A DNA stretch of 48,341 bases, taken from the IMG/VR virus record IMGVR_UViG_3300045988_161023; one strand, written 5' to 3'. Positions 44,131 through 44,963 of this stretch are shown piece by piece. The notes under the pieces were generated by a model that was not told the origin of the DNA, searched no databases, and saw nothing but the letters and a program-made list of their open reading frames with translations. Source of the stretch: a virus. Made by a program: the position numbers and the translations under genes. The stretch's first letter is position 1. Every line of letters starts with the position of its first letter.

Positions 44131-44167
44131 GGGGGGCTTGGCTGTGGGACACCTTTCATATTGTATC

Positions 44168-44185
44168 AATATAGATTAATCTATA
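44168..44185. promoter_or_regulatory. Perfect 18-bp AT palindrome upstream of the endonuclease gene
   Basis: ATATAGATTAATCTATAT lies about 30 nt upstream of the RBS and start of the plus-strand gene. Confidence 0.35.
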
Positions 44186-44216
44186 TAAACATGGATACCT
44201 TTAGGGAGGTATCCGC

Positions 44217-44963
44217 ATGTACAAAAGCATCATGGTGTTTCTGCTGGCCGCGCTGGTTATGACGTCCGAGGCGCAGGCCGCGGGCAACGAATGGAACGAT
44301 TCGTTCAGCAAGGCCAAGAAGACGCTGGAACGGCAGGTCTATTATGACCATCGGATCACGCTCTACTGCGGGGCGGCGTTCGACAAGAAGAAGAATGTCA
44401 CCCTGCCGGAAGGGTTTACTGCCGCGAAGCACGGGAAGCGGGCCGGGAAGGTGGAATGGGAACACGTGGTCCCCGCCGAGAACTTCGGGCAGGCGTTCGC
44501 GGAGTGGCGCGAGGGCGACGCGCAGTGCGTGGACAACAGGGGAAAGGCGTTCAAAGGCCGCAAGTGCGCCGAGAAGGTCAGCCGGGAATACAGGCTCATG
44601 CAGGCTGACCTGTACAATCTGTATCCGGCCATCGGCGCGGTGAATGCCCTACGCCAGAACCACAACTTTCAGATGTTGCCGGGAGAAAAGCCGGACTTCG
44701 GGAGTTGTGAGATGAAGATTGCGGACAGAAAGGCCGAGCCGCCTATCAGATCAAGGGGACAAATTGCCCGGACCTACAAGTATATGGCCGACGCCTACGC
44801 CCCGCGCTACCGCATGAGCCGCCAGCAGACGCAGCTCATGGACGCATGGGACAAGATGTATCCGGTTGATGCGTGGGAATGCACGCGGGCCAGACGTATT
44901 GAAAGACTACAAGGTAACGAGAACCCTTTTGTGAAGGAAAGATGTCAAGAAGCAGGACTCTAA
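44217..44963 (+). CDS. Secreted endonuclease I (EndA/NucM family) moron
   Basis: Signal peptide MYKSIMVFLLAALVMTSEAQA. KVEWEHVVP...DLYNLYPAIGAVNALRQNHNF matches the Endonuclease_1 family. RBS GGGAGG. Opposite strand to both flanking late operons. Confidence 0.8.
   Translation: MYKSIMVFLLAALVMTSEAQAAGNEWNDSFSKAKKTLERQVYYDHRITLYCGAAFDKKKNVTLPEGFTAAKHGKRAGKVEWEHVVPAENFGQAFAEWREGDAQCVDNRGKAFKGRKCAEKVSREYRLMQADLYNLYPAIGAVNALRQNHNFQMLPGEKPDFGSCEMKIADRKAEPPIRSRGQIARTYKYMADAYAPRYRMSRQQTQLMDAWDKMYPVDAWECTRARRIERLQGNENPFVKERCQEAGL

Follow-up and report, generated by a model that had tools for sequence, protein, structure and literature searches.

Endonuclease I carried by a prophage is already known. 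The closest precedent is Dns of the Mu-like prophage CJIE1 of Campylobacter jejuni, which is expressed by the lysogen and, as summarised in a review (Gaasbeek et al. 2009, in PMC12378983), lowers natural transformation. IdeA and SxnA, two periplasmic DNases encoded on integrative and conjugative elements (ICEs) of Vibrio cholerae, destroy incoming DNA (PMC12378983). Endonuclease I enzymes of the periplasm reduce transformation and become active once their disulfides have formed after export (PMC5714182). Here we describe an endA-like gene in the virus record IMGVR_UViG_3300045988_161023, a stretch of 48,341 nucleotides that is called the window in its whole length. The window is a temperate phage of Bilophila wadsworthia. 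With moderate confidence, we read the gene as a moron captured from the host, whose product would be an exported DNase made in the lysogen and serving mainly as a barrier to DNA. The case reveals no new mechanism, and the carrier is an undescribed but common gut phage.

The window gene and CJIE1 dns are alike in that both are prophage-borne accessory genes for a DNase of the secreted or periplasmic type, as far as descriptions can be compared. Their settings differ. The carrier here is a tailed phage that is not Mu-like, its TerL being T4-type and its portal a Phage_portal_3 protein, and endA lies antisense in the TerL-portal junction, accompanied by a host-type palindrome and a leader hairpin. 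CJIE1 Dns has a proven anti-transformation effect, whereas for the window EndA such an effect can be proposed by analogy only. Homologues from Helicobacter Mu-like prophages are about 31% identical and are annotated as “deoxyribonuclease / Endonuclease I precursor”. IdeA and SxnA, again compared by description, are also periplasmic-type DNases on a mobile element, which is an ICE there and a phage here.

The cassette resembles the lambdoid morons of the Hendrix type in being self-contained, in its AT-rich flanks, its dispensability, its alternative cargos and its position between genes that are adjacent in relatives. Unlike those morons, no terminator was found in it, the last codons of TerL are rewritten, and its GC content (0.555) is that of the window mean (0.559; the flanking late genes are at 0.62-0.64). 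A first reading of the sequence, here termed the original prediction, had proposed a secreted EndA-like moron with a palindromic operator, and it proves correct in its main points. The leader hairpin, the polymorphism of the cargo slot and the host origin are details that go beyond it.

EndA is an intact Endonuclease I with a predicted export signal

The EndA protein matches the Pfam family Endonuclease_1 (PF04231) with an E-value of 4.4e-29 and 102 bits, where the cutoff is 25 bits, over profile positions 69-233 of 235. In phmmer searches, structures of Vvn (Vibrio vulnificus) and of Vibrio EndoI match residues 29-244 with E-values of 1e-46 to 2e-50, the value for the Vvn structure 1ouo being 2.4e-50. 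Identity to Vvn, to EndoI/EndA of E. coli and to Dns of V. cholerae is 43-44% over the mature protein. The AlphaFold (AF2) model has a pLDDT of 75, lowest at the active-site loops, and matches Vvn/EndoI structures only, with TM scores of 0.83-0.86. EndA shares with these enzymes the fold, the catalytic Glu-His, Arg and Asn, the signal peptide and cysteines.

The catalytic residues, on which the original prediction depended, are all present. By alignment, Glu82-His83, Arg115 and Asn143 correspond to Glu79-His80, Arg99 and Asn127 of Vvn, and His83 stands in the column of the residue mutated in the H80A crystal form 1oup. The roles of the Vvn residues (metal-binding Glu, general-base His, Arg and Asn) are described in PMC5758888. 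Across 32 EndA homologues, with 65-93% identity, the four catalytic residues and the six cysteines (51, 104, 117, 164, 222 and 243) are invariant.

In Vvn, eight cysteines pair into four disulfides, and all eight appear on the Vvn side of our alignment. EndA differs in having six. Five of these align with Vvn cysteines; equivalents of Cys28, Cys44 and Cys75 are absent, and Cys104 is new. The latter lies within a 13-residue insertion after residue 99 (DAQCVDNRGKAFK), also absent from Vvn. A further difference is that the gene is phage-borne.

The hydropathy profile predicts a signal peptide, MYKSIMVFLLAALVMTSEAQA, followed by AGNEW. It has the expected layout of a basic n-region, a hydrophobic core of 13 residues and an A-x-A site (AQA before A), and a lipobox was not found in it. 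The predicted start of mature EndA coincides in the alignment with the mature N-terminus of Vvn, and comparable signal peptides begin all EndA homologues examined. EndA thus appears to carry a Sec-type signal peptide, and is predicted to be exported. The family and active site confirm an intact nuclease of the Endonuclease I (EndA/Vvn/Dns) family with predicted DNase activity, so this part of the original prediction holds. The enzyme would be a Mg2+-dependent, sequence-nonspecific DNase of the beta-beta-alpha-Me type, folded by disulfides and active only outside the cytoplasm.

Against eight homologues, the dN/dS of endA is 0.07-0.15. This value shows that the gene is under purifying selection and is being maintained.

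The EndA protein also matches the PHROG family phrog_6861 (E 1.5e-61), listed as “unknown function”. This annotation could be updated to Endonuclease I.

The TerL-portal junction as a cargo slot

In each of 78 loci retrieved around portal homologues, the positions of TerL, EndA and portal were determined. The slot counts refer to phages with a portal at least 91% identical and a resolved junction, and the close comparison is among about 30 near-identical B. wadsworthia phages. Intact endA occurs in about 17 near-identical phages. The slot is empty in seven (L021, L024, L034, L035, L038, L036 and L044), where TerL ends 61 bp before the portal ATG. Two phages (L027 and L058) have only ORF6N/Bro-type cargo, and in several relatives endA is stacked with ORF6N/Bro-type genes or with a SocA/Panacea pair. 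In L025 endA is decayed, having neither the promoter, the first 14 codons nor the 3' half. In L039 the cassette is reduced to its outermost ~35 bp, beside an IS200/IS605 element. These empty, other-cargo or decayed-endA slots are found at 96-98% identity of portal and TerL. In distant relatives (portal 47-79%), TerL abuts the portal.

The insert, 859 bp long in the window, replaces about 19 bp of the ancestral junction. It supplies TerL with new last codons and a stop, so that the protein ends in ...GRRI instead of ...GYRFR. Every cargo type joins the portal side at the identical point (GAACCTTGTTCACGG). A transposon-like insertion was rejected, as no terminal direct or inverted repeats flank the insert.

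These comparisons show that the junction is a variable cargo slot, and the term “moron” in the original prediction is apt for an insert of this kind. Since the slot of near-identical phages can be empty, hold other cargo or be occupied by a decayed endA, the gene is dispensable and no part of the virion. The possibility that it is a conserved virion component in relatives, which the original prediction had itself raised, does not agree with these slots. Such near-isogenic phages, which differ in whether the slot is empty, filled or decayed, provide a clean natural experiment.

Among phages that share the slot, endA and TerL have similar dS values, which points to an old acquisition in this lineage rather than to repeated swapping; recent exchange of the cassette between phages is unsupported for the same reason.

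Other sequences were seen in or near this slot. In L036, L044, L058 and L039, TerL has an intein-like insertion of ~345 residues between ...FPGAPHDDQ and C, with a GC content of 0.46 and an Intein_splicing match below the Pfam cutoff. The equivalent position in the window is within 44978..45100, and the window TerL is without such an insertion. In L036 and L044 the extra DNA of the junction region is this intein inside TerL. L013, L016 and L062 (~818..1821) have in the slot a SocA/Panacea-domain protein of 197 residues with an overlapping 137-residue partner, which may be a toxin-antitoxin or defence pair. In L039 an IS200/IS605-like element (1924..3563) replaced most of the endA cassette; its TnpA-like and TnpB-like open reading frames (ORFs) were judged by their N-terminal sequences only.

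Origin and orientation of the cassette

Most of the insert, comprising the promoter region, the palindrome, the leader and nearly the whole coding sequence, is homologous to endA loci that are chromosomal and not of phage origin (Table 1). L091/L125 belongs to Bilophila sp. MGYG-HGUT-01277, with RecQ and MFS transporters as neighbours. L090 is from a Desulfovibrio sp., with endA beside a decarboxylase-like ORF. Because the unit shared with these loci contains the control region and leader as well as the coding sequence, its source was most likely a Desulfovibrionaceae chromosome, from which the cassette was captured in one piece, the gene bringing its control signals along. That the transfer ran in this direction is our inference. 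The cassette is an accessory moron of a temperate B. wadsworthia phage.

The original prediction placed the gene opposite two flanking late operons. It is indeed antisense to both portal and TerL, but the flanks are a single string of packaging and head genes (TerS-TerL-portal) that the insert interrupts. TerL and endA are convergent, with stop codons 14 bp apart, and portal and endA are divergent, with 137 bp from ATG to ATG.

This position brings up a role in the lytic cycle, in which DNase released at lysis would digest viscous host DNA or matrix extracellular DNA (eDNA) and help virions spread. A location within the late packaging region fits such a role, as do two features on the minus strand of the insert, a hairpin resembling a terminator and a promoter-like site, by which the late operon would have accommodated the insert. 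Late transcription, on the other hand, would oppose expression of a gene antisense to it. Moreover, the control region is common to chromosomal, non-phage endA genes, and in other phages endA follows a repressor gene. Given the orientation and the host-type control region, we hold a lytic helper to be very unlikely.

The upstream palindrome and candidate promoter

As originally predicted, endA has a ribosome-binding site of its own, 7 nt before the ATG, and a perfect 18-bp palindrome, ATATAGATTAATCTATAT, just upstream. This is the single match in the window, even when 3 mismatches are allowed. About 20% of first-order Markov simulations (48 kb, same composition) contain a perfect palindrome of this length, so its existence alone is not significant. 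It is the conservation of the inverted repeat upstream of diverged endA homologues, in other genomic contexts, that lifts it above chance.

In its general form the palindrome is a 9-2-9 inverted repeat, TATATAGAT-NN-ATCTATATA. The repeat stands ~26-30 nt before the endA ATG in five genomic contexts, namely the window phage, L090, L091/L125, L370 and L268. Its centre is TA in the window and L090, AA in L091/L125 and L268, and TT in L370. The L090 version is a 20-bp perfect repeat, TATATAGATTAATCTATATA. The L370 version reads TTTATATAGAT-TT-ATCTATATAAA, and its carrier is a different phage, with a lambda-type GpA terminase and Phage_portal_2. Among the repeat-bearing loci, coding sequences differ by 13-20% and neighbours are unrelated. 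Conserved arms around two variable central base pairs are the signature of a dimer binding site, and we regard the repeat as a putative operator.

The candidate promoter was read by eye and consists of a -35 that matches 3/6 and is below the threshold of the promoter scan, and a good -10 (Table 1). The palindrome fills its spacer and overlaps the -10. In the proposed mechanism, endA would be transcribed alone in the lysogen from this AT-rich promoter, antisense to the TerS-TerL-portal string, and a host dimeric regulator would probably bind the 9-2-9 repeat overlapping it.

Several results weigh against such regulated expression. The promoter scan gave no sigma-70 site above threshold on the plus strand, and a scan for a plus-strand terminator after endA found none; transcripts of endA, if made, continue through TerL in the antisense direction. 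L121/L037 and L118 have only degraded forms of the palindrome and the Mu-like copies lack it, which means that it is not essential for keeping endA. When metagenome contigs were scanned for the core TATAGATWAATCTATA, nearly all of the matches listed were unrelated low-GC contigs, L205 was the only same-phage contig among them, and no regulon emerged.

The same features can be read as a promoter without an operator, AT-rich and possibly bidirectional, with a symmetry that is incidental or serves divergent transcription toward the portal or upstream gene. The chance frequency given above favours this, as do the lost symmetry in two homologues and the missing repeat in the Mu-like copies. The right arm also doubles as a -10-like TATA(A/T)A, and the promoter-like site on the minus strand overlaps the palindrome. 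What this reading does not account for is that both 9-bp arms are kept, with TA, AA or TT between them, in loci that are 13-20% diverged and have unrelated neighbours. Such conservation of the arms is expected of a dimer binding site and not of a single -10. We find a promoter without an operator possible, though doubtful.

If the repeat is an operator, its regulator could be encoded by the phage, for example the CI-like repressor. An operator-size palindrome near a promoter would suit a temperate phage that encodes helix-turn-helix (HTH) proteins. Against this, there is one copy in 48 kb, no repeat similar to the palindrome was found in the intergenic space of the immunity region (5040-5660), and chromosomal endA genes outside phages have this repeat upstream as well. 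A phage-encoded regulator is in our judgement highly improbable. Since the phage has a single copy and the immunity region no counterpart, a host dimeric regulator is more likely for the candidate operator. The idea of a dimeric, non-phage regulator in the original prediction is strengthened by the conserved arms, the variable centre, the chromosomal loci and the single phage copy, short of being proven.

The search for this regulator in the host, proposed at the same time, was unsuccessful. The contig matches listed were uninformative, and none of the chromosomal endA neighbours stood out as a regulator; the one HTH protein seen, at a distance of 1.7 kb in L125, is a sub-threshold match. A divergent 150-aa neighbour in L125 was considered and dropped, having no Pfam or PHROG match. 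A MerR-type promoter, with a 19-bp spacer in the chromosomal versions, was rejected since the dyad is off-centre in the spacer.

The minus-strand promoter-like site faces the portal from inside the insert. Its significance is doubtful (Table 1).

A length polymorphism of a TA repeat was observed at 44182..44191, 3' of the palindrome and at the putative -10. The window has CTATATAAACATGG, strain ATCC 49260 has CTATATACATGG and most relatives have CTATATATACATGG. The length of this repeat might tune promoter spacing.

The leader hairpin

In the leader of endA, pairing of the 5' arm CATGGATACC with GGTATCC..CATG gives a hairpin that buries the GGAGG and the AUG (44217-44219). Its minimum free energy in the window is -14.2 kcal/mol, with a z-score of -4.3. 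The leaders of L090, L091, L121, L118 and L370 fold likewise despite differing 5' arms, with z-scores of -3.1 to -5.0 for the first four and an energy of -17 kcal/mol for L370. In a structural alignment, 88% of the cells are paired; shifted registers give 15-44%, and shuffles give 37% with a maximum of 54%. At 5 pair positions both sides have changed.

If present in the mRNA, this hairpin should limit or condition translation of a potentially harmful nuclease. Translation would then probably be throttled by the pairing of the Shine-Dalgarno sequence and the AUG. Some points count against the hairpin. The alignment was drawn up manually to fit the structure, and most of the compensatory changes come from one lineage (L370) and one from L118/L268, that is, from few independent events. 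Depending on the transcription start, the full hairpin may also be missing from the native mRNA.

RNAalifold on a MAFFT alignment of the leaders reported no compensatory pair, and an Rfam search of the region gave no match at E<=1. A scan of viral contigs for the leader motif returned mostly chance matches, leaving after filtering more copies of the same phage and L268. Together, the palindrome and the hairpin are two defined cis elements that are directly testable.

Read on the minus strand, the repeat of the leader hairpin resembles a weak terminator, followed by the promoter-like site facing the portal. These terminator-like and promoter-like features carry little weight.

EndA in other phages and its likely role

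EndA homologues are recurrent phage cargo in the Desulfovibrionaceae. We found them at 66-86% identity in Mu-like phages, L370, L372 and L123, those of same-family Mu-like phages being 78-86% identical to the window EndA. In the Mu-like L127 and L371, endA is 12-24 nt downstream of an HTH_3 repressor-type gene, before Mor and on the same strand; in L126 and L128 a 99-aa coiled-coil ORF precedes it instead. In L123 endA comes after a Peptidase_S24 repressor, on the same strand, at the prophage end. L372 is another prophage with endA, and in the lambda-like phage L370 the gene adjoins the portal. Expression in lysogeny is suggested, by analogy, by the genes that directly follow a repressor-type gene (L127, L371 and L123).

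A lysogen expressing the enzyme would degrade free double-stranded DNA, either in its periplasm or in its surroundings. What it would most likely gain is a barrier to incoming DNA, either transforming DNA or mis-ejected phage DNA, with nucleotide or phosphate scavenging and the degradation of eDNA or biofilm as plausible co-benefits. We rank the DNA barrier first, scavenging and eDNA or biofilm degradation second, and a lytic helper as unlikely. The barrier comes first because of the CJIE1 precedent and of the repeated linkage to repressor genes. Host endonuclease I has been linked to the degradation of DNA from superinfecting T-even phages, which we take as a lead only.

What tells against a firm ranking is that the data fit the DNA-barrier, nutrient and biofilm roles alike. 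The enzyme could be a fitness or virulence factor, mainly feeding the lysogen with nucleotides and phosphate, or degrading the eDNA of mucus, biofilms or neutrophil traps, which would aid colonisation by a gut pathobiont. The evidence on protein and export is the same for this role as for the barrier, and the chromosomal homologues lie among transporter genes, not defence genes. Dns and Xds of V. cholerae are described as acting in biofilm and nutrient acquisition (PMC3212620), and prophage DNases of Streptococcus pyogenes degrade neutrophil extracellular traps (PMC3258162). The streptococcal enzymes, however, are of a different nuclease family, the case for Bilophila is by analogy only, and the repressor-adjacent placement fits any lysogenic-conversion role equally. 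We therefore keep a fitness or virulence factor as a tentative second choice to the DNA barrier.

In a broader and rather speculative reading, which we think unlikely to hold in full, the operator, the leader occluding the Shine-Dalgarno sequence and AUG, and endA would form a regulated module. Desulfovibrionaceae phages would have captured it repeatedly and kept it as a signal-controlled periplasmic DNase barrier against competing phages or transforming DNA in the gut. The leader would be a sensor (of temperature, a small RNA or a protein) that licenses translation. The sightings counted in this reading are the TerL-portal slot, the lambda-like phage, the Mu-like phages and the prophage ends linked to an S24 repressor.

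A DNase active in lysogens could affect gene flow into Bilophila and susceptibility to other phages. It could also affect the use of luminal DNA and interactions with mucus or immune-cell DNA.

An 80-aa ORF opposite endA in L126-L130 was considered as an inhibitor or immunity gene and discarded, because its two versions are unrelated and have no family matches.

In L370 (1..4530), the cargo beside endA includes GmrSD_N, Vsr, HinfI-type and DNA methylase genes. The same phage has a HicAB pair between terminase and portal, another cargo hotspot in a packaging region.

Table 1. Location of the features of the endA cassette and its flanking genes in the window.
Feature	Position	Strand	Basis
Inserted cassette (moron), 859 bp	44132..44990	.	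alignment with empty-slot L021, L024, L034, L035, L038
Segment homologous to chromosomal, non-phage endA loci, 83-87% nucleotide identity	44159..44937	+	blastn against L125, L091, L090
Promoter-like site TTTATA-18-TACAAT with TG, facing portal	44160..44189	-	scan: 1 found, 0.8 expected in shuffles
Candidate promoter: TTGTAT (44161-44166), 17-bp spacer, TATAAA (44184-44189)	44161..44189	+	read by eye
Perfect 18-bp palindrome ATATAGATTAATCTATAT	44169..44186	.	self-complementarity
Leader hairpin	44190..44219	+	folding
Ribosome-binding site GGAGG, 7 nt before ATG	44205-44209	+	
endA-like gene, 248-aa nuclease of the Endonuclease I family	44217..44963	+	ORF, Pfam, structure match, alignment
Predicted signal peptide, residues 1-21	44217-44279	+	hydropathy profile, sequence reading
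Glu82-His83 codons	44460-44465	+	
Arg115 codon	44559-44561	+	
Asn143 codon	44643-44645	+	
Portal, Phage_portal_3	42535..44079	-	Pfam
TerL, Terminase_6N/6C (T4-type)	44978..46441	-	Pfam
TerS	46434..46973	-	

The carrier phage and its other genes

Bilophila wadsworthia is a bile-stimulated gut bacterium that produces H2S. The assignment of the window to a temperate phage of this species is based on a prophage match, an integrase and a CI-like protein. A 72-kb contig of B. wadsworthia ATCC 49260 contains a prophage whose TerL and portal are 100% identical and whose EndA is 97% identical to those of the window. The window itself has genes for a tyrosine integrase (15770..16768) and for a CI-like HTH protein (5642..6376, plus strand).

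An assembly collection lists the identical EndA protein in 213 indexed blocks, many of the copies being on 48-51-kb contigs with unchanged gene order. In the INPHARED collection there was no close phage genome, only distant TerL matches, and B. wadsworthia phages are essentially undescribed in the literature searched.

Some other genes of the window deserve mention. A homologue of ClpP/SDH-type serine proteases (6411..7292, plus strand) directly follows the CI-like gene, and is an unusual partner for a repressor. An AcrIF11-type ADP-ribosyltransferase gene (36112..36690, plus strand) overlaps an ORF of 463 aa (36674..38065, plus strand) that has a weak Cas_Csy2 Pfam match, both labels being precomputed annotations of the identical phage L001. 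The two may be an anti-CRISPR pair that includes a Cas-like protein. Finally, the DUF2213 (Pa193_gp24-like) head protein (40026..41756, minus strand) has a tandem internal duplication of ~57 aa; L003 and L007 have instead a 519-aa version of DUF2213 plus a 74-aa ORF.

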